From the IMG/VR virus record IMGVR_UViG_3300027762_000001: DNA of 64,000 nt; one strand, 5' to 3'. Shown here piece by piece: positions 19,374 through 47,970 of the stretch. The notes below the pieces were generated by a model. It was given only the letters and a program-made list of their open reading frames with translations. It ran no database searches and had not been told where the DNA came from. The stretch's first letter is position 1, and every line of letters begins with the position of its first letter. The DNA comes from a virus. Both the position numbers and the translations under genes were made by a program.

Positions 19374-20282
19374 ATGAAGAAAAAAAATAGTAAAATTAGT
19401 AGGTATGTTATTCTTATAACTATTTTAGTGGTTTTTGTTTTAATCTTATTAAGTTATTTTAATGTCTCTCATGGATATTTAGAAGTAGATGAAATGAGAA
19501 AAGAAATTAGTAAAAACAATTACTCTTTTAAGGTTGCAGAAAATCCAGCAATTACACGAAAAATAGGAAATCTTAATATTGAGAATTTTTCAAAAAGGTC
19601 AAAATCTTTAAAGAATAAAAAAGTAAGTATATTAGAAGATATTCCTGCAAAGTATGACTCGAGAGAATTAGGAGTTGTAACTCCAATAAAGGATCAAGGA
19701 GAAGTTGGCACATGCTGGGCTTTTTCGACTACCGCAGCAATGGAAGTTGCGATAGCAAAAAAAGATAATGTAATAGTGGATCTCTCGGAACAATTTTTGA
19801 TGGCAGTAAATACTGAAGGGTATGGAACTAATGGTGGATGGTTTGCTCATCATTATCATATAAATCCAGGTGCTGTTTTAGAAGAAGACTTCCCTTACCA
19901 AGGCAAAGATGGAATAAAATTTGATATTCCAGATTACAATTATAAGTACATAGCAGATGATTGGGGTTATGTAGATGAGAATGTAGACATTCCAAATGTT
20001 AACATTTTAAAATCTGCAATATATAAATATGGATCACTATCTGTTGCTGTATATGCGGATAGATATTTTCAATATTATAAGGGTGGTATATTTGACAGAA
20101 ACAGAAAAGGTAATGTTAATCATGCTGTAAATTTAATAGGCTGGGATGATGAGAAAAAGGCCTGGATACTAGAAAATTCATGGGGCACAAAATGGGGTGA
20201 AAATGGTTTTATGTACATAAAATATGGAACAAATCAAATAGGTTATGCTGCATCCTATGTTACATATAGTGGTCTAAAATAA
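19374..20282 (+). CDS. Exported papain-family (C1A) cysteine peptidase
   Basis: Signal/anchor; P..YD.R..G.VTP.KDQG..GTCWAF, LSEQ, NHAV.LIGW, NSWG..WGE.G. Confidence 0.92.
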   Translation: MKKKNSKISRYVILITILVVFVLILLSYFNVSHGYLEVDEMRKEISKNNYSFKVAENPAITRKIGNLNIENFSKRSKSLKNKKVSILEDIPAKYDSRELGVVTPIKDQGEVGTCWAFSTTAAMEVAIAKKDNVIVDLSEQFLMAVNTEGYGTNGGWFAHHYHINPGAVLEEDFPYQGKDGIKFDIPDYNYKYIADDWGYVDENVDIPNVNILKSAIYKYGSLSVAVYADRYFQYYKGGIFDRNRKGNVNHAVNLIGWDDEKKAWILENSWGTKWGENGFMYIKYGTNQIGYAASYVTYSGLK

Positions 20283-20301: not shown

Positions 20302-20333
20302 AAAAAAATCTGCCCTGATGGGCAGATTTTTTT
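20302..20333. terminator. Intrinsic terminator
   Basis: aaaaaaatctgccc-tgat-gggcagattttttt. Confidence 0.85.
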
Positions 20334-20916: not shown

Positions 20917-20947
20917 AAAAAAACAAGGGATTATCCCTTGTTTTTTT
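20917..20947. terminator. Bidirectional terminator
   Basis: aaaaaaacaaggga-tta-tcccttgttttttt between convergent genes. Confidence 0.8.
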
Positions 20948-21208: not shown

Positions 21209-21237
21209 TTGATATTTTTTAGCCTTAACAATATAAT
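21209..21237 (+). promoter_or_regulatory. sigmaA-type promoter for head-protein operon
   Basis: TTGATA-N17-TATAAT. Confidence 0.6.
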
Positions 21238-21291
21238 TTTATTATATAGTTATAAAATGTCTACTATTTTTTGAAAATAAGGAGTGATATT

Positions 21292-22254
21292 ATGCCATCA
21301 TTATTAGAAGCTTTATCTGGCGGACTAAGTTTTTCATCACCAGCAGTAAAAGATTCAGGGAGCTTCGCTCTTCAGTTAGGGCTTTATAAAGATTCAGTTG
21401 TTAACGATTATAATAAATACAGTACACCACTAAACGAGAGCATTGCAAAAATAGCAAAAGAAAACAGCTTAAATGATAATCAGATACAAAGAATAGTTGA
21501 AGAAGTAAATAACCAAGTTTACCTTGTAAAATATGCTCAAGTAAAACAATACAAAGAAAGAGAAGTAATCTTTGATTTAGCATCTTTAAAAGTTGTTAAA
21601 GGTATACTAGAAGGAAAAGAAGCTATAGAAGATAACGATTCTATTGAGAAAAAAGCTAGCTGGAAAGAAGGAGACGATTTAAATTTTTTAAATTATAATA
21701 AATGTAAATTGCCAGGAATGAGAGAAGATAAAATTAAACCATTATCAGAAATAATGGGGGAAAAATTAGCACACGAAATATCTGAGAAAAATAAAAATTT
21801 TGATAAGGCATTGGAAAAATTTGCAGAAACAACTTATGATATAGCTGAAGCATTAATAAAGTATGATAGATTTAATAAAGACCCTCAAGAAATTTTTAGT
21901 CATATATGTAAAGAGGCAAGTGTAAATAAATATGACCAAATAATGATTAAAAAGGCTGTAACTCAAAAAGTTAATCAATTAAAAGAAGCAAGATATCTTC
22001 CGTCTGATTATAAGTTAGAATTAAATATAGTAGACTGTGCAAAGGAAGATAATTTTTCACTAGGCGAATATAGTTTAAATAAAAGAGCAAATGTAGCGCA
22101 AAGCAATGTTGAACTTCCTGTTATAGAAACTGATAGTAAAAAAGTAATAAAAAATATTCAAAGCCTTATAAATATGGCAGAGAAAATGCAAGAAGAAAAA
22201 CAAAAAGTTATTAATTTAAATGAAAATAAAAATATAATTAATAACTTAAAATAA
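21292..22254 (+). CDS. Hypothetical head-associated protein
   Basis: aaggagtga RBS; K-x-A sites EKKAS, EKLAH, EKFAE, KEAS, KRAN. Confidence 0.6.
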   Translation: MPSLLEALSGGLSFSSPAVKDSGSFALQLGLYKDSVVNDYNKYSTPLNESIAKIAKENSLNDNQIQRIVEEVNNQVYLVKYAQVKQYKEREVIFDLASLKVVKGILEGKEAIEDNDSIEKKASWKEGDDLNFLNYNKCKLPGMREDKIKPLSEIMGEKLAHEISEKNKNFDKALEKFAETTYDIAEALIKYDRFNKDPQEIFSHICKEASVNKYDQIMIKKAVTQKVNQLKEARYLPSDYKLELNIVDCAKEDNFSLGEYSLNKRANVAQSNVELPVIETDSKKVIKNIQSLINMAEKMQEEKQKVINLNENKNIINNLK

Positions 22255-22274
22255 AAATGGAAGGAGGAACCTTT

Positions 22275-23378
22275 ATGCCTCACGGTGCAGTCAAGACTCC
22301 CGAGCAAGAAGTGTTATGGGAAAAGGCAAAATTGCAAGCCGAAAAGCAGGGTCAAAAAGATAACTTTGCCTATATAATGGCTATATATAAAAATATGGGC
22401 GGTCTTAATAAAACTGCTATGGAAGATATTTTTATGGAGAAAACAGCTAAAGTTGGTTTTATAGGAAGGGTATTAGGGAAAAATGTAGGCATTGCAAAAA
22501 AAGAATTAGGCTCAGCTCTTAAAGATTTTCAAACAAAAAAAAGTTTATTAAGAAATAAAAAAGTCCAATCAGGTTTTAAATTAGGGCCACTTGATTTTAG
22601 AAAAGAAACTCCATTATACAATAAGTCTGAAATTAGAAAAATATTAAGTTCAGACATGAATAAACTGCAAGATCTTAGAACATTAAAAAAACTTGAAAAT
22701 AAAGAAACTTTTAATGCTAGAGTTAAAGGTGCTTTAGGTTTGGGCGGATTAGCAGCTGCAACACCTTATTTAAAAGATAAAATAGTAAAAGGTAAATACA
22801 CTTATCCACAAGAAACTTATACGGAAGAAACTATTGCGAACAGTGTAGTGCATGGTCTACTAAAGGAAGCTTCAATAAAAAATAAAACTCTCAACTTTTT
22901 AAAGGGAGTAAAAGATATTGGTACATTTAAAGGATATAGTGCTGCAAAACAAAATTTAAAAAATATAGAGAAGGGAGTAAATCCAACTTATTCCCTAAAA
23001 ATAAAAGAGCTTATAGGCCTTAAGAGGTCCATTAAAAACTTAAGCGGAAAAAATGAAGAGTTGAAAAAACAAATATTAAGAGAAAAAGGGTTGGATGAAA
23101 ACTCTGTATCAAGAACAATAATAGACAGAATAAAAGATGGCAATGATGTTTTAAATGCAAAAAGCAGAAGGGCGAAAGATTTAGAAAATTTATATAAAGG
23201 TAATCAAGATATTATTGGAACTGCAAATAATAAATACCAAAAAGAATATAATAAATTTGTTGACGTTAAAGACAGGGAGCTCTCTAAATCACTTGGTCTC
23301 TGGAGCATTCCAACTGTAGGAGCCCTTTATGGTGGTAAAAAAATATTAGATAAACGAAAAGAAAAGGGTAGTCCTTGA
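22275..23378 (+). CDS. Candidate polyprotein: small helical N-domain (ChaB-like?) plus basic amphipathic modules
   Basis: KTAMEDIFMEKTA and LLKEAS linkers separate modules ending in Gly-rich hydrophobic segments. Confidence 0.55.
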   Translation: MPHGAVKTPEQEVLWEKAKLQAEKQGQKDNFAYIMAIYKNMGGLNKTAMEDIFMEKTAKVGFIGRVLGKNVGIAKKELGSALKDFQTKKSLLRNKKVQSGFKLGPLDFRKETPLYNKSEIRKILSSDMNKLQDLRTLKKLENKETFNARVKGALGLGGLAAATPYLKDKIVKGKYTYPQETYTEETIANSVVHGLLKEASIKNKTLNFLKGVKDIGTFKGYSAAKQNLKNIEKGVNPTYSLKIKELIGLKRSIKNLSGKNEELKKQILREKGLDENSVSRTIIDRIKDGNDVLNAKSRRAKDLENLYKGNQDIIGTANNKYQKEYNKFVDVKDRELSKSLGLWSIPTVGALYGGKKILDKRKEKGSP

Positions 23379-23441
23379 TTATTTTGTTTCAATAAATTAA
23401 AATAGTTTTATAATACTTATTCTTTGGGAGGTTTTTAAGTT

Positions 23442-24371
23442 ATGAATAATAATGAATATAACGTATTGGTTGAAAAGTTAGCAGAGGAAATTATAGTTGA
23501 TACAGCAAAAAGATCGGAAGGTAATTTTGGGCAACCAGGAAGCTTTCCAAATATGCAACAAGAACCAAATGGTGGAGTGTCAGGTTTAGAAAGAGGCGGA
23601 GAAGAATCAAAGAGTATAGGGTCTAAGTTTTTAGATTTTATAAAAGGAACTAAAAAAGTAGAAGTTGGACCTAATGTTGTTGCTGATGCTTCAACAGGAG
23701 ATTATGCGGTTAGTGAAACTAAAGTTGCTTATGAAGAATTAGAACTAGTTAAAACTGCAGCTGAAAAAGCTTTTAATGAAGCTGACAATTATGTTCACAG
23801 TGATTCAATAAAAGAAGCAGCTTATCAAATCTATGAAGAAGCAATAGAAAAAGAAGCTACTCTAGCTTATTCTGAATCTCAAATGTTAAAACAAGCAGCT
23901 GAAGAAGCTTTCTCTGAAGCTGATAATTATGAAGATGAAGAATATATTAAACAAGCAGCTTATGAAATATTCATGGAAGCTGAAGAAGTTGAAAAGGCAG
24001 CATCAGAATATTTAGCAGAAAAAACTATAGAAGAAGCTGCGGAAGCATTTGATTACTCTCAAATGTTAAAAAGTGCGGCTGAAGAAGCTTATGCAGAAGC
24101 TGACAATTATGAAGACAGCGAGTATATCAAACAAGCAGCAGAAGAAATTTACGCTGAAGCTTTAAGTATAGAAAAAGAGGCTGGTAGCTTTTTAGTTGAA
24201 ATAGAAAAAGTAGCCGAAGAAGCGGCAGAAGAAGCAACTAAAGAAGAAGAAGATGAAGAGGAAGAAGAAGATGAAAAAGAAGAGCCTAAAGAAGATAAAG
24301 AAGAGGCTTCTAATAGTATGGCTCAAAAAATAATAGAAGAAGCGGCAAAGAAAAAAATGAATAACGAATAA
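23442..24371 (+). CDS. Glu/Ala-rich repeat protein (scaffold/core-like)
   Basis: Three K.AAE.A..EADNY.....IK.AA..I..EA repeats; acidic tail. Confidence 0.6.
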   Translation: MNNNEYNVLVEKLAEEIIVDTAKRSEGNFGQPGSFPNMQQEPNGGVSGLERGGEESKSIGSKFLDFIKGTKKVEVGPNVVADASTGDYAVSETKVAYEELELVKTAAEKAFNEADNYVHSDSIKEAAYQIYEEAIEKEATLAYSESQMLKQAAEEAFSEADNYEDEEYIKQAAYEIFMEAEEVEKAASEYLAEKTIEEAAEAFDYSQMLKSAAEEAYAEADNYEDSEYIKQAAEEIYAEALSIEKEAGSFLVEIEKVAEEAAEEATKEEEDEEEEEDEKEEPKEDKEEASNSMAQKIIEEAAKKKMNNE

Positions 24372-24450
24372 GCAAATCTTTAAAATCAGACATTTAAAAG
24401 GCATTTCTTTAATTTAAAGAAATGCCTTCTTCATAGAAAGGAGCATAGAG

Positions 24451-25872
24451 ATGGAGAAAAATTCTGGAGTAGGTAGCATATTAAGTACCGCATATGTTGG
24501 AAGTGAAGCTATTAAGGGAGCAAAGGAAAGTAAAAGACTCCTTAAAAATCCTAATGTAAATAAGTTTGATGAAATTTTAAAAAACACTCCACAAAAAACT
24601 ATTTCAACTTTTAAAATGTCATCAGCAATTGACGAGCTGTATCTTGAGAAATTATCATACGAAAACAATCAAAATAATGAAGATAAAAAAAAGAAAAGAA
24701 ATATAGCGCCTTACATAATTGGAGCATCTATATTGGGAGCTGGCGCTGCTGAAGCTATAAAAACAGGAAATCCATTAAGGCCACTGAGAACTGCAGGTAA
24801 AGCCTTGAAGGAATTTGGGCACAAGCTACCTAAAGCTGTACTTGGCAGAAGTGGAAAACCTATATTTGAAGGTTTAAGAAAATCTAAACAGATAGTTCAG
24901 GATACCAAAAAGTTTGATAAAGCATTACATGGAGGATCGCCACAAAATCTTCTCCATTATTATTTGCCAGGCGTTGTTTTTGGTGGAGGTATGGGTGCAA
25001 GCAATTTAGCGGTTCATTTGTTGGGAGATAAATACTTTGATAAAAAAGTTAATAGAAAATCATATAATAATTTCCCAAGCCCTAGTGTTCAAATATATAG
25101 AAAGAGAAAATCAGCATCAGATATGATAGATAATAATTTCATGGAAAAAATAGCACAACTAAAAGGCAAAGCTTTTGCTAAAAAATTATTTGTTGAAGAT
25201 TTTTTACAAAATAGTTTAAAAACAATACCTTTTGCACTAACTCCAATAGCTGTATCTCATGCAATGAATAGAAATTTAAAAACTGATTTTAGTCCAATAA
25301 GAGGAAGTAAAGCTCAAAATCATAATGTTGATAAAATTATAATCGAAGTGCCAAGAGAAAAACTTATTAAAACAGCAAACGTAAAAAAAAATTTTCAACT
25401 ATATAAAAAATTAAAAGGTAAAAATTTTAAAGGGTTTACTTTCAGTAAATTTAAACCTAAAGCTGATTCAGGTATAGAGTCATGGGAAAATTTTGCAAAA
25501 TATAGGGTGCCTGAAGGCATGGTCAGGTCTTTAAGTTGGTTTGGAGTTCCTGCGGCTATAACTGCGCTAACTGGAAGAAATATAAAAGGCTTAGGAGAAA
25601 AAGTTAAAAAACATGAAGATATAGATCCTGATAAAGTCAGAATAACAGTTGATAGAGGTTCTGAATACGATGATGCAAATAAATTTATGGATGCATCTAG
25701 AATGTCAAGAATGGCAGATACTAATGAATTATTTATTGAGAAAAAATCAAGTGTGACAAAAGACATAGATAAAATAGTGAAAAATATTTTATCTGAAAAT
25801 AAAAAACTTAAATCAATAAATCCAAGAGTTATAACTCAAGGTATTCAAAAAAACAAAAAAATGTTAGGATGA
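24451..25872 (+). CDS. Candidate polyprotein of membrane-active modules
   Basis: Linkers KMSSAIDELYLEKLS, KSASDMIDNNFMEKIA, KTA, RMADTNELFIEKKS; Gly-rich hydrophobic segments between. Confidence 0.55.
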   Translation: MEKNSGVGSILSTAYVGSEAIKGAKESKRLLKNPNVNKFDEILKNTPQKTISTFKMSSAIDELYLEKLSYENNQNNEDKKKKRNIAPYIIGASILGAGAAEAIKTGNPLRPLRTAGKALKEFGHKLPKAVLGRSGKPIFEGLRKSKQIVQDTKKFDKALHGGSPQNLLHYYLPGVVFGGGMGASNLAVHLLGDKYFDKKVNRKSYNNFPSPSVQIYRKRKSASDMIDNNFMEKIAQLKGKAFAKKLFVEDFLQNSLKTIPFALTPIAVSHAMNRNLKTDFSPIRGSKAQNHNVDKIIIEVPREKLIKTANVKKNFQLYKKLKGKNFKGFTFSKFKPKADSGIESWENFAKYRVPEGMVRSLSWFGVPAAITALTGRNIKGLGEKVKKHEDIDPDKVRITVDRGSEYDDANKFMDASRMSRMADTNELFIEKKSSVTKDIDKIVKNILSENKKLKSINPRVITQGIQKNKKMLG

Positions 25873-26123
25873 TAATTTTGAATAATATAATAAGCGTAAT
25901 AACTGAAGCTGCATCAAAGAAAAAATTAGTTGAAATAACATATCAAGACTCAAAAGGTCTTGTTACAAACAGAGAGACAGAGCCATATGAAATAAGAGAT
26001 AATTCTTATTATGGATTTTGTATTTTAAAAAACAGTATAAGAAAATTTAAATTATCTAACATTTTGTCAGCCAAAATGTTAGATAATGAGTATAGACCTA
26101 AGTGGTCAGTTAAAATTCCGTAA
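25869..26123 (+). CDS. Stand-alone WYL domain protein
   Basis: I..A......VEI.Y.D..G..T.R..EPY......YYGFC......R.FKL..I..A. Confidence 0.85.
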   Translation: MIILNNIISVITEAASKKKLVEITYQDSKGLVTNRETEPYEIRDNSYYGFCILKNSIRKFKLSNILSAKMLDNEYRPKWSVKIP

Positions 26124-26196
26124 AGATAGGCTGCTTTACTTTGATTGCTATTTATAATAAAATTTAAATTGAAAACATAATAAAGGAGGTTTAATC

Positions 26197-26340
26197 ATGG
26201 AATATAAAAATCATCCAGGATTTATCGCTTTTAAAGCTTCTAATGTAAAAGAAGATGTAAGCTGTAAAGAAGAAAATATTGATAAAGATATCGTTGAGCC
26301 TGAGAAAAAGAATGAAGGTGGTGACGAAGGCAAAGAGTAA
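26197..26340 (+). CDS. Small acidic protein (47 aa), not in ORF track
   Basis: aaggaggt RBS; MEYKNHPGFIAFKASNV...GKE. Confidence 0.55.
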   Translation: MEYKNHPGFIAFKASNVKEDVSCKEENIDKDIVEPEKKNEGGDEGKE

Positions 26341-28210
26341 AATCTTTGCCTTAATACTTATGAGAAAATTATCTGATTCTATAATAAAAGAAGCATGTGA
26401 AGAACTAAATGTTGAAGGAAAGCTAGAAAAAAAGGCTTTAAACTTTGCAGATTTTTCTTTTTTGCCAGGATCTATATTGGGCTCAATAACTGGCTCAATT
26501 ATAGCTGGGAATAAAGTTAAAGCTGAGAACCTTCAAAGAAGAATGGAAGAAGAGGACAGAACAGCTTTAAGCGGAAATTATTATAACCAGGCTCAAAATA
26601 TAGTTAATAACTTAAAAGTTGTATTCACGCCATTTGGAGTTATATATATAGTAAAAGATGGCCCTAAAGAAACTACGATTGAAAATATAAACACAAATGA
26701 AATGAATACAGCTATGTACTCTGCTTGGCAAGCTAAAGATGCAGAATACTTTAAAAATATACTATTAAACAAAATGCAAAGTGAGCTTCAATTTGTTGAA
26801 CAAATGTTTGCAAAAAAAATGGTGGAAAAACAGCTTGGTATAAATAATACGATAAAACAAGAAAAGAAAGCATCTATAGATTTTAATGACTTAACTTTAT
26901 ATGAAACTTTAGAGTATGTATCAAAAATGAAGGATATGTATTCTAAACAAAATGAAGCTACAGAGAAGATAGCATCTCTTTTAATTAATGAGATGGATGA
27001 AAGAGAAGATGATTATGTTATATCTTTAAAGTTAGAAAGACCAGTAGAAAAATATGCTTTCTTCGGAGAGGCTTTAAAATTTATGGGGCTTGAAGTAGGA
27101 AGTAAAGACATAAAATCATTACAAGGAAAATTTCTTAATCCATCACATTTAAATAATAGAGTTCAAGTAGGCTTTTTACCTGATAGAGTTGTTTTTATAG
27201 TTGATAATAAGGTTATGTCTTCTCTTCTTGCTATGGATATGAATGAGGAGGGATTTGAGAATTTTAATAAAAGTAATGAAGGTTACTTTAGAAACTTATT
27301 TAAAGAAGAAGCTAAAAAAGGAATGTTAAGAATTCAAGGTAAGATTCCGCCTAATTCTCCTTTAATGAAAATGCAAGAAAAAAAAGCATCTTTTGAGGAT
27401 AATGACTTATCTCAAATCTTTAAAAGAAACGACATACATCCTTTAATTTATTATAAAGCTTTAACAAAAACATTCGGTGATACATGGATTTCATGGGACG
27501 GCAATGCACTTGTTAAAGCAATAGAAAACTCTTTTAATTTAAAAGATGGTGTACCTAGTATTCCACTAAATAAAATATTATCAATAGAAGTTTGTAATTC
27601 TAGCTATACTCCATATACAAGTAAGCATGCTTTCGAGAAGATAATAAGAGGTTTTACTGAAAAATCAGTTAACTTTATGGAGAGAGAAATCTCAGATATA
27701 ACTCCAGAAGATTTAGCTCTAGGTATAGATGCTTTAGATTTAGTAACTCCTAATGATGATATATATGATAATTTCAATCATGAAGTCTTCTCTCATATAA
27801 TTGAAATCTTATTGATAAATAATTGTAAAATATTTTATCCGTCAGAAATGACAGACTCTGTTTTAAAAGATGAATTTTATAGTCAATTAAATGAATATCT
27901 TTTAAATGCTACAAATAAAAAAGATATTGAAGCTATAGACAATAAGAAGCTTGAGAGTAAAACCATAAGTAATAATACGATAATAAATAAAGTATCTTTA
28001 TCTATACTTAACAATATAAGGAAAGTAAAAAAATCTTCTGATTTTGATAATATAAAATTCATTTCAGATGTACTAAATAAAACAAGTATAGAAGATAATA
28101 TAAAAAGCATTATTGAAAAACAAGTTACAAATAATATATTTTTAGATGAAGTATTGGTTATCAAAACAAGAGTATTAAAAGAGCAACTCGCTTTTCTTGA
28201 GCTAAATTAG
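26279..28210 (+). CDS. Hypothetical head-associated protein with internal duplication
   Basis: Two similar modules (LKVVFTPFGVIYIV / VQVGFLPDRVVFIV..YF.N); many EKxA sites; precedes portal; start uncertain. Confidence 0.6.
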   Translation: MIKISLSLRKRMKVVTKAKSKIFALILMRKLSDSIIKEACEELNVEGKLEKKALNFADFSFLPGSILGSITGSIIAGNKVKAENLQRRMEEEDRTALSGNYYNQAQNIVNNLKVVFTPFGVIYIVKDGPKETTIENINTNEMNTAMYSAWQAKDAEYFKNILLNKMQSELQFVEQMFAKKMVEKQLGINNTIKQEKKASIDFNDLTLYETLEYVSKMKDMYSKQNEATEKIASLLINEMDEREDDYVISLKLERPVEKYAFFGEALKFMGLEVGSKDIKSLQGKFLNPSHLNNRVQVGFLPDRVVFIVDNKVMSSLLAMDMNEEGFENFNKSNEGYFRNLFKEEAKKGMLRIQGKIPPNSPLMKMQEKKASFEDNDLSQIFKRNDIHPLIYYKALTKTFGDTWISWDGNALVKAIENSFNLKDGVPSIPLNKILSIEVCNSSYTPYTSKHAFEKIIRGFTEKSVNFMEREISDITPEDLALGIDALDLVTPNDDIYDNFNHEVFSHIIEILLINNCKIFYPSEMTDSVLKDEFYSQLNEYLLNATNKKDIEAIDNKKLESKTISNNTIINKVSLSILNNIRKVKKSSDFDNIKFISDVLNKTSIEDNIKSIIEKQVTNNIFLDEVLVIKTRVLKEQLAFLELN

Positions 28211-28221
28211 GAGGGTAAACA

Positions 28222-30189
28222 ATGAGTGATATAAATAAAGACATAACAGAATTAGATGAACTTCCAATGAACGCCATAGATCTTGACAATCCTCTTGATG
28301 GTGATGATAAAAAAATTGCAATGTTAAGAGAGGAAAAAGATAAGGCTATAAGTATGGTGAAGATTGCATCTTTTGATGGAAGACTTCAAGACCCATACCC
28401 TACTCCATTTTTAAATTTATCCGATACCAAGATACCTAGGACATCAACTGAAATTTTTAAATGGTGTAAATATTTTTATACTTTTGACCCGCTAATTGCA
28501 GGAGCCATTAATGCACTATCCACTTTTCCAGTTACTGAAATTTATTTAGAAGATGTAGATGAAAACGGAAAAGGCGATAAAAATGAAGATAGTGATACTT
28601 TAATTTTATATAAAAAAATCTTTTTTAAAGATTTAAATATATATAAAATGTTAATTGAAATAGGTATAGATTATTATTTGTATGGCAACTGCTTTATATT
28701 TGGAGAACTACATACAAATAAAGCAACTGGTAGTGTTGAGTGGAAGAACATGGTGAGACTTGATCCTAATAGAGTTATTATAGATTATAACCCGGCTACA
28801 AAAGAAAAGAAATTTAAATGGAGAGTATCTCCATCTATTGCTAAAATTATAAAAGATAAAAAGCCAAAAGATGAGTATAATAAAATACCAGATATAATGA
28901 AAGAGGCAGTACTTAAAAATAACTCTATAGTATTAAATTCAAATAATATATATCACTTCCCAAGACCTACAGATTCAGCGGGAGATAATAATATTTGGGG
29001 AACACCTATTATTGCAAATGTACTAAAACTTTTAATGTATAGAAATATATTAAGACAATCTCAGGAGGCTATTGCGAGAGAACATATAGTGCCTATGAGA
29101 GTTTATTATTTAGATAGAACCAATGATTATAATCCTACGGCTGATTGGAATAAAGTTGCATCTAACTTTGCTGCTGAACTTAATAAATCAGTAAAAGACC
29201 CTAATTATAAAGTTGTATCTCCTGTTCCTGTTAATTTGATAAATGTTGGAGGTCAAGGAAGGGCTTTATTATTAACTCCAGAAATAGAGCAAATACAAGC
29301 TGAGATTTTGGCAGGAATGAATGTTCCAAGAGAGTTTATATTTGGTGGAGTTGGTTATTCTGGAAGTTCTATATCTTTAAAAATATTAGAAAATCAGTTT
29401 ATAACTTATAGACTTTTACTAAAAGACTTTATGCAAAACTTTATAATAAAAAATATGGCTAAAGCTAGAAAAGAATGGGTTAGTGAAAAGGATGATAGTT
29501 CATTAATTACAGTTAAAATGATGGACTTAAAAATGCAAGATGACGTACAGCAAAAACAATTAGTAATACAATTAAATCAAGCTGGCAAATGTACTAATGA
29601 GTATATGTGGAAAGTTATAGGAATGGACCCTGATAAAATGAGGGAGTCATTAAAAGATGAAGCAATAGAAGCTATAAAAACTGATACAGAAATAAAAATG
29701 GAGCAGTTAAAATCACAATTAGAACTTCAAAAGGTGCAGATGCAAGTAGATCAAGAAATAAGAAAATTCCAATTAGAGATGTATAAAAGTGACCCACAAA
29801 TGAATCAGGAAGAAGCTCAAATGAGTCAGGAACAACAAATGATGCAACAGCCTATGCAAGGACAGGGTCAAAGTCAAGACCAAGGTATGCATCCAGCGGC
29901 ACAAGGTCAAATGCAACCAGAGCAAATGCAACCAGAGCAAAATCCAGCTATTGACGAATCTGATGTCGTCAATGAGGATGCTCAGATTCAAAATGTTGCT
30001 CTTCAATTAATTAAAACAGGGGAAAAAGGAAGAGATGCTTTCTTAGCTTCCTTGCCTGATAGATATAAACAAAAAGTTATAAAGAAAATGCAAGAATTAA
30101 CAACATCTATGAATAATCAGCAAGGTGCAGGAATAGATATGAGACCTATGCCAGAACAAAAACCACCAAGAAGAGATAGCCTAAAATAA
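28222..30189 (+). CDS. Portal protein
   Basis: W..YFY..DPLI...I.....FP, Y..YGN.F, WG.P, P.R, G.NVP.EF..G; coiled coil and Gln-rich tail. Confidence 0.8.
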   Translation: MSDINKDITELDELPMNAIDLDNPLDGDDKKIAMLREEKDKAISMVKIASFDGRLQDPYPTPFLNLSDTKIPRTSTEIFKWCKYFYTFDPLIAGAINALSTFPVTEIYLEDVDENGKGDKNEDSDTLILYKKIFFKDLNIYKMLIEIGIDYYLYGNCFIFGELHTNKATGSVEWKNMVRLDPNRVIIDYNPATKEKKFKWRVSPSIAKIIKDKKPKDEYNKIPDIMKEAVLKNNSIVLNSNNIYHFPRPTDSAGDNNIWGTPIIANVLKLLMYRNILRQSQEAIAREHIVPMRVYYLDRTNDYNPTADWNKVASNFAAELNKSVKDPNYKVVSPVPVNLINVGGQGRALLLTPEIEQIQAEILAGMNVPREFIFGGVGYSGSSISLKILENQFITYRLLLKDFMQNFIIKNMAKARKEWVSEKDDSSLITVKMMDLKMQDDVQQKQLVIQLNQAGKCTNEYMWKVIGMDPDKMRESLKDEAIEAIKTDTEIKMEQLKSQLELQKVQMQVDQEIRKFQLEMYKSDPQMNQEEAQMSQEQQMMQQPMQGQGQSQDQGMHPAAQGQMQPEQMQPEQNPAIDESDVVNEDAQIQNVALQLIKTGEKGRDAFLASLPDRYKQKVIKKMQELTTSMNNQQGAGIDMRPMPEQKPPRRDSLK

Positions 30190-30201
30190 GGATGTGATTA
30201 A

Positions 30202-30417
30202 ATGAAAAGAGGAATAAAAACATTTATACTTCCTATGCAGGATAAAGAAGCTTCAATTTTTATGAATAATAAAGATATAGTTGTAACACTAAAGGAGAGA
30301 CACTTTGCCCCAAAAGAGGGATTACTATATTTATATATAGAATATGACGACTTCGCTCCTGAAGGTGAAGATTATGAAGATTGTGATGAAGGTGGGTGTT
30401 TATTAAATGATACATGA
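30202..30417 (+). CDS. Small hypothetical protein overlapping RNAP start
   Basis: 71 aa, acidic tail, overlaps RNAP ORF by 11 nt. Confidence 0.55.
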   Translation: MKRGIKTFILPMQDKEASIFMNNKDIVVTLKERHFAPKEGLLYLYIEYDDFAPEGEDYEDCDEGGCLLNDT

Positions 30418-33400
30418 AAAAACTGAAGATTTAAAAAGAAGACTTATGAATTTTATGCAGAGGAATACACCCATTAAGGCTGATACTAGAAGTTTACATA
30501 TTGAGAACTTAACTATAACAGAGCCTTCAGCAGTAAATGATTTAGACCAACAGCTTAACATGAAGTATTCTGAATCAGGAAATTTAAAGGGTTGGCTTAG
30601 GGGAAATGTTACAGTTACAGACAATAAAACAAATAAAGAAATAGCAAAAACTAATCCGATAAATTTAATACCTGTATATTATATGACTGATAGAGGTACA
30701 TATATAAGTAATGGTATTGAGAAAAATATTTTAACTCAAATGAGATTAAAACCTGGAGTCTATACTGAAAAAGGTGCTGACATAAGAACCAATCTTATGT
30801 TTGATATGACAAAACAGTATCTTCCTAGAATAGATATTATATTTGATCCAGGTGCAATGTCATTTAAAATTATTATAAAAAGAGGAAAAGACACTAAATT
30901 TGATGGCATTGGATTTTTAAGAGAATTAGGTTTTTCTGATGCTGAAATAAAAAGAGCTATTGGTAACGATTCAGTTTCTGATATGCTATTTTCAGTAAGC
31001 AGAGAAAGAAAAAGTATATACGATATATTTAAAGCTATAACTGGTAAAACATCTAGTGATACGCCAGATAAAACAAGAGATATGTTATTTTCTTATTTTG
31101 ATAATGAAATGACGTTTGGAGAAGATGGTAAGGAGTCAGTTAAATCAACTATAAATTCAAGTTCTAAAAGTTTAAATAAAGATATAATATTAAGGTCTGT
31201 AAATAAAAACTTTGCGGTATTTAGAAATGAAGTTGAAGAAGACGATAAAGATGATTTAAGATTTAAAGTTGTATCAGATGATAATGATTTGATAATGGAA
31301 GAAGTTGCACAAGACTTTGAGGTATTTAAATCATCTGTAATAAATACTTTAAATACAAGAGAAGTTTTAAATTCATCAGACTTAAGAGGATTAACTAAGT
31401 TAGGGAAAAATATTGATAAATTCATGAAAGAAAGTGATTTATCGCAAAATCCGGAACAGACTAATCCACTAGAAATAGCATCCATTGATAGAAAAGTTAC
31501 TCAGATAGGTGGGTTTCAAGGTATATCAAAAGACAATGCTGACAAAGTTATTAAACCAAGAAACTTAAAAGCTATGGCAATTAATAGATTAGATCCAGTT
31601 GAAACTCCAGAGTCAACAAAGATAGGATTAATAGAACATTTAACTCAAAGTGCTGAGGTTAAAAATAAAACTATTAGTACAGAGTTTATAAAAGTAAAAG
31701 ATGGCGTTGCCGTAAATACTCTTGCCAATGTAGTTAAATTAACTCCAGATAAAGAGTATGACTCTAAAGTTGCCTTTTATGATTTAAGATATATAAGAAA
31801 AGATGGTAACAAAATAATATTTACAAAAGATGTAATTCCAGGAAGATATAAAAGTAAAATTCAAGATATTCATATAAGTGAAATACAGTATGTTGATAGA
31901 GCTCCGCAAAACCTTTTAAATTATGCTGCAAATATGATACCCTTCGTAAGTCATGATGATGGAAACAGAACACTTATGGGTACTAATATGCAAAGACAGG
32001 CTGTCTCAATTATCAACAGAGAAGTTCCACTTGTTATGTCTGCGTCTGACGATAAAAGGACATATGAAGATGTTATAGGGGAAAAATATGGGAAGCCAGT
32101 AAATTCAACGACTAGTGGAGTTGTAAAAGATATAACTTCATCTAGAATAATAATTAAGGATGAAAAAGGAAAAGAGCATGCTCATAATTATTACGACCAT
32201 TTTCCTGTCAATCAAAGTTTTATCAATAATGAGCTATTAATAAAAAAAGGACAAGAAGTAAAAAAAGGTCAAATGCTTGCAGAAGGATGGCAAACTAGAG
32301 ACGGTAAACTTGCCTTAGGTGCAAATGCAAGAGTTGCTTATATGCCATTTAAAGGCTTTAACTATGAAGATGGTGTAGTTGTAAGTAAAGACTTTGCTAA
32401 TAAAATGTCAAGCGAAGAAATGCATCAAGTAGAAATTGAAATTTATTCTGACTACTTAGGTGGTAAAGGTAGTAACATACGGGATGAGCTAAAAAAGTAC
32501 ACAGTTAACCAAGAAATTTTAACTAGGCTAGATAAAGACGGAATAATAAAAGAGGGCTCATACGTAAAGCCAGGCAATATACTAGTGGCATTCTTAGCTC
32601 CAGAAGATAAATATGAAACTTATGGACTATCAGAAGTCTTAGGAATTAAAAAGAAAAATGTAACTTATAAGCTGGGCCAAAAAATAATAGAGGAATCTAG
32701 TTATTTAGAAGGTACAGTTAAAAGAATAAATATAATAGAAAGTCCTGAAGCAGGAATAAAACAAAAAATAGTAGTATCTCTTTTAAGTGAAAAGTCATTA
32801 AAGCTAGGAGATAAAATTTCTGGTAAGCACGGAAATAAAGGAATAATAACAAAGATACTCCCTACATCTGAGATGCCTGTAGCTGAAGATGGCAAAAATG
32901 TTGACTTAATCTTTTCTCCATTAGCGGTACCTTCAAGGAAAAATTTAGGCCAATTATTAGAAGTCAATGCTGGATTAATAGCAGAGAAAAAGGGAAAACC
33001 TTTTATTGTAAATAATTTTGACCCTAAAGAAAAAGAGAGAGTTGAAAAAGAATTAAAAGAAATAGGTATTCCTGATGGAAAAATGAAAGTTAGCTTAAGA
33101 GAAAGACAAGACGATGACAGCATTAAAGAAATCCCTGTAGACAATCGTGTTACAGTTGGCAATATGTATATAATGAAATTAAAACACAAAATTGATGATA
33201 AAGTTCAATCAAGAAGTAACATTGAAGGTGTTGCTCCTGAAAGAAAAACATTTATGCCTGCTAAAAAATTAGGTCAGGCACAAGGCGAAAAGTACAATCC
33301 TCAAAGACTTGGTGAAATGGAAATGAGGGTATTGCAAGCTCATGGAGCTGTTCATAATATATTAGAGAGCTCCACTATAAAAGCTGACGGTGGAGGAAAT

Positions 33401-36400
33401 GAACAAAATAGAATAGCAATATACAATGCTATAGCCACAGGAAAACTAGATAGCTTAGATTTTTCTGCCACTCCAGAGACTATAAATGTAATGGCTGATA
33501 CATTAAAAGGGCTAGGCTTAAATGTAAAACCTATCAATAATGGAGATGTAGCTAAATCATTTGATGAAGCTTATGATAGTTTAGCTGTTGTGCCTATGAA
33601 ACCTAGTCAAATGATTAAAATGATAGGTAAGGATAACGAGGTTACTCAGCCAAAAATGTATGACGCAAAAGCTGGAGGAAGACAAGTCCCATATAGAAGG
33701 GGGCTTGCTGACCCTGAAATTTTTGGAGATGATAAGAGCTCAGATTTAGAGGATAGAAAAAAATGGGGTTATATAAAACTTGGCACTCCAATTCCAAACC
33801 CTATACTTATGTCCAATGCATCATACAATCCATACTCTTTAATAACTGGGATGAAAGATAGTCAGTTGAAAGAGTTAATGGACGGTAAGAAAGTTATGGT
33901 AATTGACCCTGAAAAATATGAGGCTTTTAAGGGTAATAAAGAAAAGATAGAGGAAGTAAAAGCGAATATGGATAAGCTAGGTTTTAAGCCTGGTGATTTA
34001 GTTGATCCTCAAAAGCTTGAAAAATTAGATTTAGATAGTAATGTAATTTTATGGAAAGCTGGAGGAGAAGGCATTCAGCATTTATTAGATAATGTTGATC
34101 TGGAATCTGAACTGAAAAAATCAGAACAAAAACTAAAAGATGCCAAGCCTAAAGATATAGATAAACATTATAAAAAATATAAATCACTTTTAACATTAAA
34201 AAATAACAACTTAAATCCTGGTGACTTAATGCTTCACTATCTACCTGTTACGCCTCACTACTTTAGACCCACTCAAATGCAAGGTAAAAAAGTAGTATTG
34301 TCAGATTTAAGTGAACTCTATGGTAATGTTATAAAATCTAATAACTCTATAATTAATAACTATGAAAGTGGCTTTGACATGATAGGTGACTCAGACCCTG
34401 AACAGGCTGCAAGACTTACTAGGTCACTTTATAAGACAGTGTCTTATGCAACTGGAGACAAGGAATATTATCATCCACGAAAGAAACGAAAAATGCTAGG
34501 AATAATAGAGAGTTTAGGTAAAAAAGAAGGCCTTATAAGAAATAAAATGCTAGGGAAAAGAGTAGATTTTTCTGGAAGGTCAGTTATTGGTGTTGATCCT
34601 AACTTAAAGTTAGATGAGGTTGGAATTCCTCTTGATATGGCTAAAAATATTTACAAGCCTTTTATAGTTAAAGAATTAATGAGTAGAGGCTTGGCTAAAG
34701 ACAGAAAAGAAGCTACTAAGAAGATAAAAAAAGGTGATAGTGATGTTAAAAAGATATTAGATGATTTAGCAAAAGACAGACCAGTATTATTAAATAGAGC
34801 TCCATCACTACATAAATTTAATATACAGGCTTACACTCCCGTTATAAAAGATTATCAGGATGGCGAAGCTGTGAAGATAATACAATTAAATCCGTTGTCT
34901 GTATCAGGCTACAACGCTGATTTTGACGGGGACACTATGTCTGTCCACCTCCCTGTAACTGAAAAGGCCAATGAGGAAGCTAAGAAACTAATGAGACCAT
35001 CAGATAATTTAATAAATCCTACAAATGGAAAAATGATAGTTGAAATACGTCATGAGATGGCATTAGGCATATATTATCTAACGATGAGCTCTGACAAGGT
35101 AAAAGGTGAAGGTAAAACATATAGCAATATAGAGCAATTAAGAAAAGATTTTAAAGATGGAAATATAAATGTAAAAGATAAAGTTACTATCGGAGGCAAG
35201 ACATCAACAGCAGGTCAAGCAATGTATAATTTACTCTTACCTGAAAAATATAGAAATTATAGTTTAGCATGGTCCGCAAAAGATATATCTAAGATGTTTT
35301 TAGAGATGTATCAAGAAGCAGAAAGAACTAATGGAAAAGCTATATCTATAAGTGAAGTTAGTAGAATATTAGATAATGTAAAAGATTTAGGTTTTGAAGC
35401 ATCTACAAGGTCTGGAATTAGTATAGGTATTGGTGACTTTAAAAAGATAGAAGATGCAGATCAATTATTCGATTCACATGTGAAAAAAGAAATGAAGACA
35501 AATAAAAATCCTAATGATGCTAAAATACAAGGTTGGCTTAAAGCTGAAGGAGAAATACAGGATAGGCTTAAAAAAGGTGAAATTTTAGCATATGATAATC
35601 CTGTTCAAATAATGATGGCATCAGGTGCAAGGTCAAAACCTGACCAAGTAAGAAGAATGATGGTAAGTGTTGGTGTTGGTATGGATTTGACCGATAAATT
35701 AACAAGCCCAGTTAAACACTCTCACTTAGATGGATTATCTCCACAAGAGTACTGGACTCACAGTTACGACTCTAGAAAAGGTATGTATGATAGAACCGTA
35801 GAAACGAGAGAGCCAGGAGCATTCTCTAGAGAGGTATGGAGTGTAACTCAGGATATTGTGATAAAAGAAAAAGATTGCAAGACTCGTGACGGAATAAGTA
35901 TACCAAAATCAAACCCATCAGCATTAGGAAGATTTTTATCTGAAGATGTTTTAGGTACATCTTCAATAATTGCAACGAGAGATTCGCTAATAACAAAAGA
36001 GGTATATGATAAAATTTATAAAGATGAAACTGTGAAAATGATAAAGATAAGGTCTCCATTAAAATGTAAGGTTGTAAATGGCCTTTGTCAGAAGTGTTAC
36101 GGAACTATGCCTGGTACTATGCAAACTGCAAGTATAGGCTCTCCAACAGGAGTTATAGCATCACAAGCATTATCTGAGCCTGCAACGCAGATGACAATGA
36201 ATACATTCCATAGTGGAGGAACAGGGTCAGCTGCAACAGTTGGATTTCCTAGAATTAAACAAATACTTAATTTATCAAAAGATAGTGAGAGTAAAGCAGT
36301 CTTAGCTAGAACATCGGGCAATGTTATATCTATCAAAAAGGGTGCAAAGGGAACATTTGATATAGTTAGAATAAGTAATGTTGACCATAACGTTCCTCAC

Positions 36401-37237
36401 ACAAAAGAAGGTGCTAGTCAAAAGATTAAAGTTTCTATTGGTGATAATGTAATAAAGGGTGACTTTTTAACTTACGGAGATATAGATGATATAAATGCTG
36501 GAGAAAAATTAATATTATCAGCAGACCCAAGAGAGATGTTTGCGTTGAAGAGTGAAGAGCTAGGTCAAGATAAGGCATGGGATTATACTCAGAACTATTT
36601 AACTAACAGCATACAAAGAGCTTATGAAGATACATTTGGAATAGGGGCTGTAGATAATAGGCATTTAGAAACAGTGGTGTCTAAAATGACTTCGAGAGTT
36701 ACGATAATGGATCCGGGAGATTCAAACTTTATAAGAGGCGATGTAGTAGAAAAGAATCAAGCAGACCAATGGAACTCTATCAATGCTGGTGAGTTTAGTG
36801 TTAAAACTAAGAATGTAAGTAATGCAGGTGAAATCTTAAACAGTGTTGCGCATGAAACATATAAAGATAGAGCTGGAAATACAATAGTTTCAAAAGGTGA
36901 TATGTTTACAGAAGAAAATATTCCAAAATTAATGTTAGCAAATATAAGCCAAGTAAAAGTTAAACCAAAGCCAGTTAAATATAATATAGAATTATTAAGT
37001 AAGAATCAGGCGGTAACAAAAGGGCATGATAATTGGCTTAGTAATATGGGTCATGAAAATGTAAAAGAACAATTAACAAGAGCGGTTGTTAAAGGACAAG
37101 TTGATAAATTAAATGACCCTAGAACTAGACTCATGACAGGAAAGCTGTTAAATATCGGTGAAGGGTTTAATGCTGTTAAACAGAAAGCTAACAGTATTGC
37201 AAATAGGATGTTCAACTTCTTTAGTAAAGATGATTAA
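30407..37237 (+). CDS. rpoBC: Fused beta-beta' DNA-directed RNA polymerase
   Basis: beta: PVETPE..KIGL, IPF..HDD.NR.LMG.NMQRQA, G.NYEDG, GDK..G.HGNKG, KL.H..DDK, QRLGEME; beta': LGKRVDFSGRSVI, NRAPSLH, YNADFDGD (34913-34933), RSPLKC..CQKCYG, EPATQMTMNTFH. Confidence 0.97.
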   Translation: MIHEKTEDLKRRLMNFMQRNTPIKADTRSLHIENLTITEPSAVNDLDQQLNMKYSESGNLKGWLRGNVTVTDNKTNKEIAKTNPINLIPVYYMTDRGTYISNGIEKNILTQMRLKPGVYTEKGADIRTNLMFDMTKQYLPRIDIIFDPGAMSFKIIIKRGKDTKFDGIGFLRELGFSDAEIKRAIGNDSVSDMLFSVSRERKSIYDIFKAITGKTSSDTPDKTRDMLFSYFDNEMTFGEDGKESVKSTINSSSKSLNKDIILRSVNKNFAVFRNEVEEDDKDDLRFKVVSDDNDLIMEEVAQDFEVFKSSVINTLNTREVLNSSDLRGLTKLGKNIDKFMKESDLSQNPEQTNPLEIASIDRKVTQIGGFQGISKDNADKVIKPRNLKAMAINRLDPVETPESTKIGLIEHLTQSAEVKNKTISTEFIKVKDGVAVNTLANVVKLTPDKEYDSKVAFYDLRYIRKDGNKIIFTKDVIPGRYKSKIQDIHISEIQYVDRAPQNLLNYAANMIPFVSHDDGNRTLMGTNMQRQAVSIINREVPLVMSASDDKRTYEDVIGEKYGKPVNSTTSGVVKDITSSRIIIKDEKGKEHAHNYYDHFPVNQSFINNELLIKKGQEVKKGQMLAEGWQTRDGKLALGANARVAYMPFKGFNYEDGVVVSKDFANKMSSEEMHQVEIEIYSDYLGGKGSNIRDELKKYTVNQEILTRLDKDGIIKEGSYVKPGNILVAFLAPEDKYETYGLSEVLGIKKKNVTYKLGQKIIEESSYLEGTVKRINIIESPEAGIKQKIVVSLLSEKSLKLGDKISGKHGNKGIITKILPTSEMPVAEDGKNVDLIFSPLAVPSRKNLGQLLEVNAGLIAEKKGKPFIVNNFDPKEKERVEKELKEIGIPDGKMKVSLRERQDDDSIKEIPVDNRVTVGNMYIMKLKHKIDDKVQSRSNIEGVAPERKTFMPAKKLGQAQGEKYNPQRLGEMEMRVLQAHGAVHNILESSTIKADGGGNEQNRIAIYNAIATGKLDSLDFSATPETINVMADTLKGLGLNVKPINNGDVAKSFDEAYDSLAVVPMKPSQMIKMIGKDNEVTQPKMYDAKAGGRQVPYRRGLADPEIFGDDKSSDLEDRKKWGYIKLGTPIPNPILMSNASYNPYSLITGMKDSQLKELMDGKKVMVIDPEKYEAFKGNKEKIEEVKANMDKLGFKPGDLVDPQKLEKLDLDSNVILWKAGGEGIQHLLDNVDLESELKKSEQKLKDAKPKDIDKHYKKYKSLLTLKNNNLNPGDLMLHYLPVTPHYFRPTQMQGKKVVLSDLSELYGNVIKSNNSIINNYESGFDMIGDSDPEQAARLTRSLYKTVSYATGDKEYYHPRKKRKMLGIIESLGKKEGLIRNKMLGKRVDFSGRSVIGVDPNLKLDEVGIPLDMAKNIYKPFIVKELMSRGLAKDRKEATKKIKKGDSDVKKILDDLAKDRPVLLNRAPSLHKFNIQAYTPVIKDYQDGEAVKIIQLNPLSVSGYNADFDGDTMSVHLPVTEKANEEAKKLMRPSDNLINPTNGKMIVEIRHEMALGIYYLTMSSDKVKGEGKTYSNIEQLRKDFKDGNINVKDKVTIGGKTSTAGQAMYNLLLPEKYRNYSLAWSAKDISKMFLEMYQEAERTNGKAISISEVSRILDNVKDLGFEASTRSGISIGIGDFKKIEDADQLFDSHVKKEMKTNKNPNDAKIQGWLKAEGEIQDRLKKGEILAYDNPVQIMMASGARSKPDQVRRMMVSVGVGMDLTDKLTSPVKHSHLDGLSPQEYWTHSYDSRKGMYDRTVETREPGAFSREVWSVTQDIVIKEKDCKTRDGISIPKSNPSALGRFLSEDVLGTSSIIATRDSLITKEVYDKIYKDETVKMIKIRSPLKCKVVNGLCQKCYGTMPGTMQTASIGSPTGVIASQALSEPATQMTMNTFHSGGTGSAATVGFPRIKQILNLSKDSESKAVLARTSGNVISIKKGAKGTFDIVRISNVDHNVPHTKEGASQKIKVSIGDNVIKGDFLTYGDIDDINAGEKLILSADPREMFALKSEELGQDKAWDYTQNYLTNSIQRAYEDTFGIGAVDNRHLETVVSKMTSRVTIMDPGDSNFIRGDVVEKNQADQWNSINAGEFSVKTKNVSNAGEILNSVAHETYKDRAGNTIVSKGDMFTEENIPKLMLANISQVKVKPKPVKYNIELLSKNQAVTKGHDNWLSNMGHENVKEQLTRAVVKGQVDKLNDPRTRLMTGKLLNIGEGFNAVKQKANSIANRMFNFFSKDD

Positions 37238-37243
37238 AACTTT

Positions 37244-37268
37244 AAAAGAGCCGAGAGGCTCTTTTTTT
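37244..37268 (+). terminator. Intrinsic terminator after RNAP
   Basis: aaaagagcc-gaga-ggctcttttttt. Confidence 0.85.
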
Positions 37269-37281: not shown

Positions 37282-37298
37282 TAGCATTAGAAATAAAA
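37282..37298 (+). promoter_or_regulatory. Phage promoter-like motif, copy 2
   Basis: TAGCATTAGAAATAAAA (one mismatch). Confidence 0.6.
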
Positions 37299-37522: not shown

Positions 37523-37540
37523 TAGCATAAGATATAAAAG
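37523..37540 (+). promoter_or_regulatory. Phage promoter-like motif, copy 3
   Basis: TAGCATAAGATATAAAAG. Confidence 0.65.
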
Positions 37541-37817: not shown

Positions 37818-37834
37818 TAGTATAAGGAATAAAA
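37818..37834 (+). promoter_or_regulatory. Phage promoter-like motif, copy 4
   Basis: TAGTATAAGGAATAAAA. Confidence 0.65.
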
Positions 37835-38334
37835 TGAAGGGAGATGATAGTATGAACTATGAAGAATTTGCAGGCTTGCAAAATAAAGTATCAGAGCTAA
37901 ATGGAAATTTTAGATTTAAAATTATGCAAAAAGTATTTGAAGATTCAGGCATAAATTTTACAAAAAGAATGATGTTTTATTATATAGAAGATAATTTAAT
38001 TCCACCAATTCATAAATTAAATAAAAATCAAGCTTACTATACAAAGGAGCATATTTACAGATACTATCTTATATCTTTATTGAAAGAGTGTCTGAGTTAC
38101 GAAGAGATAAAAATATTCTTTGTGCAAAATAAAGAAGATATAGATAAAATGGATTCAGAAAAGTTGATAGAGTTAAATTTTAAGATACTGCCTAAAATAC
38201 ACACTGAATTATATAATAGAATTCTCTTAAGTGAAGAAAGAGAGCAGTGCGATTTTAAGAATCTTTATGACAAATTTGTAAATCTATCAATTTTATATAA
38301 CTCTAAAAAAATGCTTATAAATAGAGATGAATAA
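37834..38334 (+). CDS. DUF1836/MerR-like HTH protein
   Basis: T..M...Y....LIPP.......Y...H........LK..LS.EEIK; likely start 37852. Confidence 0.65.
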   Translation: MKGDDSMNYEEFAGLQNKVSELNGNFRFKIMQKVFEDSGINFTKRMMFYYIEDNLIPPIHKLNKNQAYYTKEHIYRYYLISLLKECLSYEEIKIFFVQNKEDIDKMDSEKLIELNFKILPKIHTELYNRILLSEEREQCDFKNLYDKFVNLSILYNSKKMLINRDE

Positions 38335-44191: not shown

Positions 44192-44208
44192 TAGTATAAG
44201 AAATAAAA
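44192..44208 (+). promoter_or_regulatory. Phage promoter-like motif, copy 5
   Basis: TAGTATAAGAAATAAAA. Confidence 0.65.
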
Positions 44209-46646: not shown

Positions 46647-46664
46647 TAGCATAAGAAATAAAAG
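46647..46664 (+). promoter_or_regulatory. Phage promoter-like motif, copy 6
   Basis: TAGCATAAGAAATAAAAG. Confidence 0.65.
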
Positions 46665-47296: not shown

Positions 47297-47314
47297 TAGT
47301 ATAAGGGATAAAAG
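47297..47314 (+). promoter_or_regulatory. Phage promoter-like motif, copy 7
   Basis: TAGTATAAGGGATAAAAG. Confidence 0.65.
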
Positions 47315-47952: not shown

Positions 47953-47970
47953 TAGCATAAGATATAAAAG
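47953..47970 (+). promoter_or_regulatory. Phage promoter-like motif, copy 8
   Basis: TAGCATAAGATATAAAAG. Confidence 0.65.

Follow-up and report, generated by a model that had tools for sequence, protein, structure and literature searches.

The RNA polymerases of phages are covered in reviews as two kinds only, the split and sigma-less enzymes of the phiKZ/AR9 type and the single-subunit types (PMC7824862, PMC13282480), and recent reviews hold that phages smaller than 200 kb encode single-subunit polymerases only and that the multisubunit polymerases of phages come without a sigma homologue (PMC13282480, PMC7824862). Here we describe a gene from a 64,000-nucleotide stretch of a phage genome (IMG/VR record IMGVR_UViG_3300027762_000001; this whole stretch is called the window below) which, to judge from its domains, encodes a bacterial-type RNA polymerase with beta and beta' joined in one chain, and a sigma70-family factor encoded elsewhere in the same genome. 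In the literature we found no description of a fully fused phage beta-beta' or of its sigma.

The closest described relatives are the enzymes of Salmonella phage Arash (gp206 and gp216, with the sigma gp10; OQ632216; PMC10585845) and of Vibrio phages D69, D148 and D181. They belong to the same lineage of the tree, have the same junction between beta and beta' and the same deleted zinc finger of beta', and in Arash a homologous sigma is likewise found a few genes 3' of the tail-associated cell-wall hydrolase. However, identity is only about 26%, and in Arash and D69 beta is fused just to the N-terminal half of beta', the C-terminal half being a separate gene several kb away. Because these forms are nested among fully fused ones and share their junction, the split looks secondary. 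The hosts differ too, those of Arash and D69 being Gram-negative, whereas the source phage has a G+C content of 31% and lysis domains of Firmicute type. The Arash paper gives proteomics without an analysis of the enzyme (PMC10585845).

The mReC enzymes (Weinheimer and Aylward 2020, PMC7481178) are similar in that they come from metagenomic tailed phages, have beta and beta' recognisable by cellular models and branch apart from the cellular enzymes. In part 10/14 of Supplementary Data 2 of that work, beta and beta' of the mReC contigs are always two proteins, and its main text reports no fusion within mReC and does not contain the words sigma or virion (PMC7481178). The phiKZ/AR9 polymerases are phage two-barrel enzymes too; they have neither alpha nor omega and are resistant to rifampicin, and one set of them is packaged and injected for early transcription. 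They consist of four to five very divergent subunits, form two paralogous sets and work without a sigma70-family factor (PMC7824862, PMC13282480), whereas the fused polymerase is one chain and one set, of bacterial-type sequence, with a true sigma. The rpoB-rpoC fusions of Helicobacter and Wolbachia, with which the first-pass annotation of this locus had compared it, remain useful as an analogy, since beta and beta' are joined head to tail in the same way. Kinship is not supported: those fusions serve cells as housekeeping enzymes, have full-size subunits (about 2880 amino acids) and use alpha, omega and host sigmas, and the Helicobacter-type proteins group with bacteria in the tree, unlike the phage clade.

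The single-chain polymerase

The window is part of a complete phage record of IMG/VR (152,620 bp, 30.7% G+C, rated 100% complete) that has an exact terminal repeat of 123 bp. Its structural genes include those for a portal, large terminase, major head protein, head protease and tail sheath; among its replication genes are those for a DnaE-type DNA polymerase, a primase-like protein and helicases, and its lysis domains are of Firmicute type. Positions given below are those of the window, except for the sigma gene, which is given in whole-genome coordinates. The parts of the polymerase gene are the following:

30407 to 37237, + strand: single-chain RNA polymerase core, 2276 amino acids, in one frame open in genetic code table 11
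30407 to 33535, + strand: beta module, about residues 1-1043 (from Pfam and a structure-sequence alignment)
about residues 1044-1055, + strand: beta-beta' linker of about 12 residues (from motif positions)
33572 to 37237, + strand: beta' module, about residues 1056-2276 (from Pfam and alignment)
34913 to 34933, + strand: catalytic NADFDGD, residue 1503 (from motif search)

Pfam places Rpb2_3, Rpb2_6 and Rpb2_7 of beta in residues 350-1042 (218 bits for Rpb2_6) and Rpb1_1 to Rpb1_5 of beta' in residues 1077-2106. With the first 1075 residues as query, positions 82-1041 aligned to 95-1057 of the cyanobacterial chain 8gzg_C (E 2e-96), which makes for a near-complete beta, and the beta' part matched Firmicute beta' chains with E values down to 1e-124. 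The motifs ETPE, HDDGNR and MQRQA of beta stand at residues 399, 516 and 528, and the junction region is marked by TPETINV (residue 1022, nucleotide 33470), LKGLGLNV (residue 1033, nucleotide 33503) and YDSLAVVP (residue 1056, nucleotide 33572), so that beta passes into beta' between nucleotides 33503 and 33572. The first-pass annotation had read from the letters one open reading frame (ORF) of 2276 amino acids with near-complete beta and beta' and an intact NADFDGD, bacterial-like motifs (HDD.NR, MQRQA, ETPE) and a junction near 33530-33575. The first of these is borne out by Pfam, by the alignments and by the catalytic motif at residue 1503, all three bacterial-like motifs are located in the ORF, and the junction is confirmed, with its motifs spanning nucleotides 33470-33572. 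On this evidence from domains and motifs, a phage-encoded RNA polymerase of bacterial type has its catalytic core in this ORF, a short linker connecting beta with beta'. The gene is present in single copy, and no second RNA polymerase was found in the complete genome.

Two features set the chain apart from bacterial enzymes, to which its best identity is only about 29%. The N-terminal zinc finger of beta' is deleted, about 30 residues with all four Cys being gone in five of five aligned phage-clade sequences (Arash among them), all five of which retain the second zinc site of beta'. Furthermore, the three main rifampicin-resistance positions, D516, H526 and S531 in E. coli beta numbering, are altered to E, I and T, respectively.

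The fusion is widespread. About 90 cluster representatives of 2200-2340 amino acids turned up in a database search; their identity is 31-56% over the full length, and many of these fused homologues sit on phage contigs of 130-170 kb. The phylogeny that had been put forward earlier as a check was calculated from a 2062-column alignment of 49 concatenated or fused sequences (LG+G4, quick search), and in it the phage polymerases group apart from the bacterial references: these four references together with eight other fused proteins, the Helicobacter-labelled ones included, make a clade with 100% support, and the phage proteins fall outside it as one group (Shimodaira-Hasegawa-like approximate likelihood-ratio support 86) with two subclades, each supported at 100. 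One of the subclades includes the 2276-residue protein; in the other the fused forms are a little shorter, and Salmonella phage Arash and Vibrio phage D69 fall among them. The junction is common to both subclades and to Arash gp206. As far as these comparisons of sequences go, the joining of beta and beta' in one chain is genuine and old.

When bacterial and archaeal genomes were scanned, two true relatives came up, on short contigs of metagenome-assembled genomes labelled Bacillus sp. and Cyclobacteriaceae; the other 78 listed matches were rejected as archaeal polymerase genes, which are chance pattern matches. No prophage copy of the polymerase was among the matches listed, and the scan yields no firm host. 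Three fused homologues (P0006, P0084 and P0093) are longer, 2730-3100 amino acids, and carry intein and homing-endonuclease domains (PF14528, PF05204); homing endonuclease genes also stand among the polymerase genes of the Vibrio D69 group.

A sigma70-family factor in the same genome

The first-pass annotation recognised no sigma gene in the window, and this is correct for the window; it does not hold for the genome, where a sigma70-family gene lies outside:

57306 to 58172 of the genome, - strand: sigma70-family factor, 288 amino acids, inside the tail/baseplate operon, 12 kb before the window

Pfam identifies Arash gp10 as a sigma (Sigma70_r3, 35.7 bits), and among the 541 ORFs of the genome gp10 has a sole match, the 288-residue ORF (E 4e-5), which is separated by 28 nucleotides from the upstream ORF of the tail operon. 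A word-based search found three relatives of this ORF and an exhaustive HMMER search 68, of 260-300 amino acids. Across regions 2, 3 and 4, in this order, the family profile matches SigA, SigF and RpoS (E 7e-17), and the AlphaFold2 model of the factor (predicted local distance difference test, pLDDT, 89.8) has sigma factors as its top Foldseek matches. These proteins are remote from the Pfam models: 6 of 61 family members reach Sigma70_r3 unaided, Sigma70_r2 has no match in the genome, and Pfam applied to the 288-residue ORF alone gave no match. Profile and structural model taken together, the ORF is a sigma70-family factor. The SigA residues that read the -10 and -35 elements (regions 2.4 and 4.2) are not conserved in it. 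Both complete fused-polymerase relatives tested have the sigma. In one of them (G001) we also noticed a second, weaker sigma-like ORF of 219 amino acids (E 5.8e-7, C1:49539-49808, locus L109).

In complex prediction, a clamp fragment of beta' together with the phage sigma scored 0.44, and the best control 0.00. Of 80 solved complexes 58 attain this mark, as do 2 of 110 mismatched pairs; just 7 of the 80 solved complexes, plus both mismatches, score no more than 0.60 at that mark. The runs agree in at least 61% of contacts, with a partner pLDDT of at least 69. The prediction lends weak support to the pairing, and we infer that the polymerase most likely works with the phage sigma as a two-protein holoenzyme.

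The search of the rest of the genome for alpha and sigma genes, proposed earlier as a check, has thus a divided outcome, as the sigma was located and alpha was not found with Pfam models. The models for the N-terminal and C-terminal domains of alpha and for omega (PF01000, PF01193, PF03118, PF01192) have no match in the complete genome, Pfam having also missed the sigma. The enzyme may be independent of host alpha, as the first-pass annotation had supposed, or it may make use of it.

The transcription unit and two promoter-like classes

The polymerase closes a long unit on the + strand, and its surroundings are as follows:

21209 to 21237, + strand: sigmaA-like promoter TTGATA-17-TATAAT, 11 of 12 matches, candidate promoter of the 16-kb unit
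28222 to 30189, + strand: portal protein, 655 amino acids (phrog_16240, E 1.7e-18)
30202 to 30417, + strand: ORF of 71 amino acids between portal and polymerase, with its own ribosome-binding site and an acidic C-terminus
37244 to 37265, + strand: strong intrinsic terminator, 9-bp stem and T run, 7 nucleotides past the polymerase stop

Two + strand terminators (20302-20333 and 20917-20947) stand just 5' of the near-consensus -35/-10 pair which heads the polymerase operon, and transcription appears to run from it to the terminator at 37244-37265. The 16-kb unit (21271-37237) encodes five proteins with a motif that is discussed with packaging below, candidate internal head proteins, and then the portal, the small ORF and the polymerase. 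The earlier placement of the polymerase at the end of the portal operon therefore stands, as it ends this head and portal unit with a strong terminator after its stop. It had also been said to follow the portal gene on the same strand with no terminator between; no + strand terminator was indeed found between the portal gene and the polymerase ORF, but the 71-residue ORF intervenes.

This small ORF overlaps the ATG of the polymerase by 11 nucleotides and, by this arrangement, is translationally coupled to it. It has 46% and 32% identity to the equivalently placed ORFs of two relatives (L010 and L011); the small ORFs likewise positioned in Arash (gp205) and in Vibrio phage D69 have only 13-16% identity, which is not significant. 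An ORF of similar size seems to be kept at this position across the clade, sequence homology being established for a part of it. The order of portal, small ORF and polymerase is common to L010, L011, Arash and D69, and the best cultured matches of the portal are the portals of Arash and D69, which are themselves 5' of polymerase genes.

Intergenic regions of the genome hold two promoter-like classes. Class I is the phage-specific 17-bp motif TAGYATAAGRNATAAAA (about 25 bits), present in 20 copies in the genome, all on the + strand and all intergenic. It is without a conserved -35 element, often stands directly past a terminator and comes as close as 1 nucleotide 5' of a ribosome-binding site. 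It precedes small ORFs and replication genes and never capsid, tail or polymerase genes. Its copies in the window are these:

12793 to 12809, + strand: TAGYATAAGRNATAAAA, at the head of the + block 12859-20282
37282 to 37298, + strand: class I motif with one mismatch, directly past the polymerase terminator and before a small ORF
37523 to 37539, + strand: class I motif, past a terminator hairpin and before a small ORF
37818 to 37834, + strand: class I motif, before ORF 37834-38334
44192 to 44208, + strand: class I motif match
46647 to 46663, + strand: class I motif, whose reverse strand TGCTATAAT faces the SNF2 helicase gene
47297 to 47313, + strand: class I motif match
47953 to 47969, + strand: class I motif match
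60945 to 60961, + strand: class I motif match
63298 to 63314, + strand: class I motif match
63889 to 63905, + strand: class I motif match with one variant base

The TAGYAT of the motif would retain T-12, A-11 and T-7 of a -10 hexamer, and transcription would then start inside ATAAAA. The core favours one strand by 19:2 in this genome and by 28:2 in a relative whose polymerase is 51% identical and lies on the other strand; the core was not found in a relative with 44% polymerase identity, in Arash or in D69. Some class I copies are preceded by ATTA (46647-46663, 37523-37539 and 63298-63314), and in these the complementary strand has the extended -10 TGCTATAAT; at 46647 the two may form a back-to-back promoter pair.

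Class II is sigmaA-like. The sequence TGnTATAAT was found 7 times in intergenic regions against 0.9 expected, one of the places being before the major head gene, and in its letters the class looks like host sigmaA promoters.

Proposed packaging and early transcription, and their alternatives

The polymerase and the sigma are both inside structural operons, here as well as in distant relatives. In the purified virions of Arash, liquid chromatography-mass spectrometry counted 3516 spectra for Gp206, the highest of all proteins, 1210 for Gp216 and 467 for the sigma Gp10, polymerase and sigma leading the list outside the capsid proteins (PMC10585845). The first-pass annotation had called the enzyme late-expressed and possibly packaged, and by analogy this would be a reasonable reading, because a cultured relative with the same layout has the enzyme in its virions. 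Most members of the sigma family begin with an N-terminal leader which ends in [FYIL][LI]EK[ILMF]A[AS], for example LEKLAA. For a related motif, hydrophobic-x-[EQ]-K-hydrophobic-[AS], the genome has 21 occurrences where shuffling gives 7.0 +/- 2.6, and it is concentrated in the head protease, capsid-side and pre-portal genes (7321-11821 on the - strand, 21271-25872 on the + strand). This fits a candidate signal for targeting to the head or for processing by the head protease. The sigma of the source phage itself (..DKIA) misses the exact pattern.

The gene and its domains, their conservation, the sigma, the two promoter-like classes and the operon structure are observed, and on their basis we suggest how the system may work. 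The host polymerase would make polymerase and sigma late in infection, from the structural operons with their sigmaA-like promoters; both proteins would be packed into the capsid and injected along with the DNA; and the holoenzyme would then transcribe early and middle genes from TAGYATAAGRNATAAAA. The overall logic would be that of phage N4, run by a bacterial-type enzyme. In N4 an injected virion polymerase reads the early promoters and the host sigma70 holoenzyme reads the late genes, including the gene of the virion polymerase. The likeness is one of scheme only, as proposed here, for the N4 enzyme is a T7-like single-subunit polymerase which works on hairpin promoters and is unrelated in sequence. 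This programme of a late-made, packaged and injected polymerase-sigma holoenzyme that fires class I promoters we regard, taken whole, as somewhat more probable than its opposite. A more detailed version is doubtful and is offered as tentative: the two proteins would be a self-sufficient holoenzyme without zinc finger, alpha and omega, loaded into the capsid via the sigma leader and injected, and it would read a promoter consisting of the -10-only TAGYAT and a conserved start region, leaving to the host polymerase the making of the virion and, with it, of the next polymerase.

Several points weigh against such a programme. With a near-consensus sigmaA promoter in front of it, the polymerase operon might just as well be expressed early, by the host polymerase. 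Both promoter classes are candidates recognised in the sequence, and which polymerase reads which of them is what we infer. The predicted contact of the beta' clamp with sigma is weakly supported and may owe its score to similar complexes that are already solved. That no alpha or omega was found does not show that they are lacking, because the Pfam models, used in the same kind of search, missed the divergent sigma. Packaging in the source phage would follow by analogy with Arash, and the Arash set consists of 116 'virion' proteins, ribonucleotide reductases among them, for which the authors allow carry-over of abundant proteins (PMC10585845). Finally, we considered that the polymerase itself might carry the leader motif of head proteins and rejected this, as there is none in it, so that it would have to enter the capsid with sigma or by another route.

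Some of these points are at the same time the strength of the main rival of the packaged holoenzyme, a polymerase that never enters the virion. There the host sigmaA holoenzyme would express the operon and the sigma after infection, from just such a near-consensus promoter, and the phage holoenzyme would take over middle or late transcription; the polymerase lacks the leader motif, and the signal in Arash, whose 116 virion proteins include metabolic enzymes, would be carry-over. It is harder to reconcile with the place of both genes in structural operons, which is kept in distant relatives, with the polymerase of Arash outnumbering the major capsid protein in spectra and with the leader of the sigma family, which is like that of head proteins; moreover, a sigma that is required to start a transcription class cannot bootstrap itself from the tail operon. 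We think this explanation possible, though on the unlikely side.

The two proteins might also act in mixed enzymes. The phage sigma would then redirect the host core to class I promoters, as the sigmas of SPO1 and T4 do, and the fused beta-beta' would join host alpha, omega and sigmaA or have another role. It is common for phage sigmas to work with the core enzyme of the host (Iyer et al., PMC7824862), Pfam models found no phage alpha or omega, and the beta and beta' modules align end to end with bacterial ones, all of which would suit such an arrangement. Yet sigma and fused polymerase occur together in all complete genomes tested and both are in Arash virions, the class I motif shifts as polymerase and sigma diverge, and the deletion of the beta' zinc finger together with the diverged recognition residues of sigma suggests a co-adapted pair, so that we consider mixed enzymes improbable. 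That the gene is an artefact, a bacterial rpoB-rpoC misassembled into a phage contig or two genes merged by a sequencing error, has a negligible chance, for nothing except the resemblance to bacterial enzymes speaks for it, and the contig is a complete phage genome with a terminal repeat, the best bacterial identity is low, about 90 independent clusters have the identical fused junction and the phage clade stands apart from bacteria in the tree. Misassembly was rejected on the conservation of the junction across independent assemblies, and an alternative genetic code on the frame being open in table 11.

If the programme of a packaged polymerase-sigma holoenzyme is true, this would be the smallest known bacterial-type transcription machine, one catalytic chain and one sigma without alpha, omega and zinc finger, delivered by a virus particle, and it could serve as a minimal structural model for assembly and for sigma-dependent initiation. 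Virion polymerases would then extend beyond the T7/N4 type and the highly divergent phiKZ/crAss types, and the independence from host transcription at the onset of infection would be explained for a large and almost wholly uncultured phage lineage. Owing to the changes in the rifampicin pocket, the model would be easily testable in the cultured relative Arash.

Two further observations concern other parts of the window. Nine exact copies of GGACACTT, in both orientations, stand together with near copies at 12160-12710, where the divergent head-protease operon and the + block leave a gap of 1 kb; the whole window has 10 exact copies, with 0.9 expected. Long A/T runs adjoin them, as does a (TA)n tract. 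The copies may be iterons or an origin, or else an array for the binding of a regulator. A protein of 2139 amino acids (51936-58355, - strand) has an N-terminus that matches the Mtd_N domain of the major tropism determinant and is probably a tail fibre.

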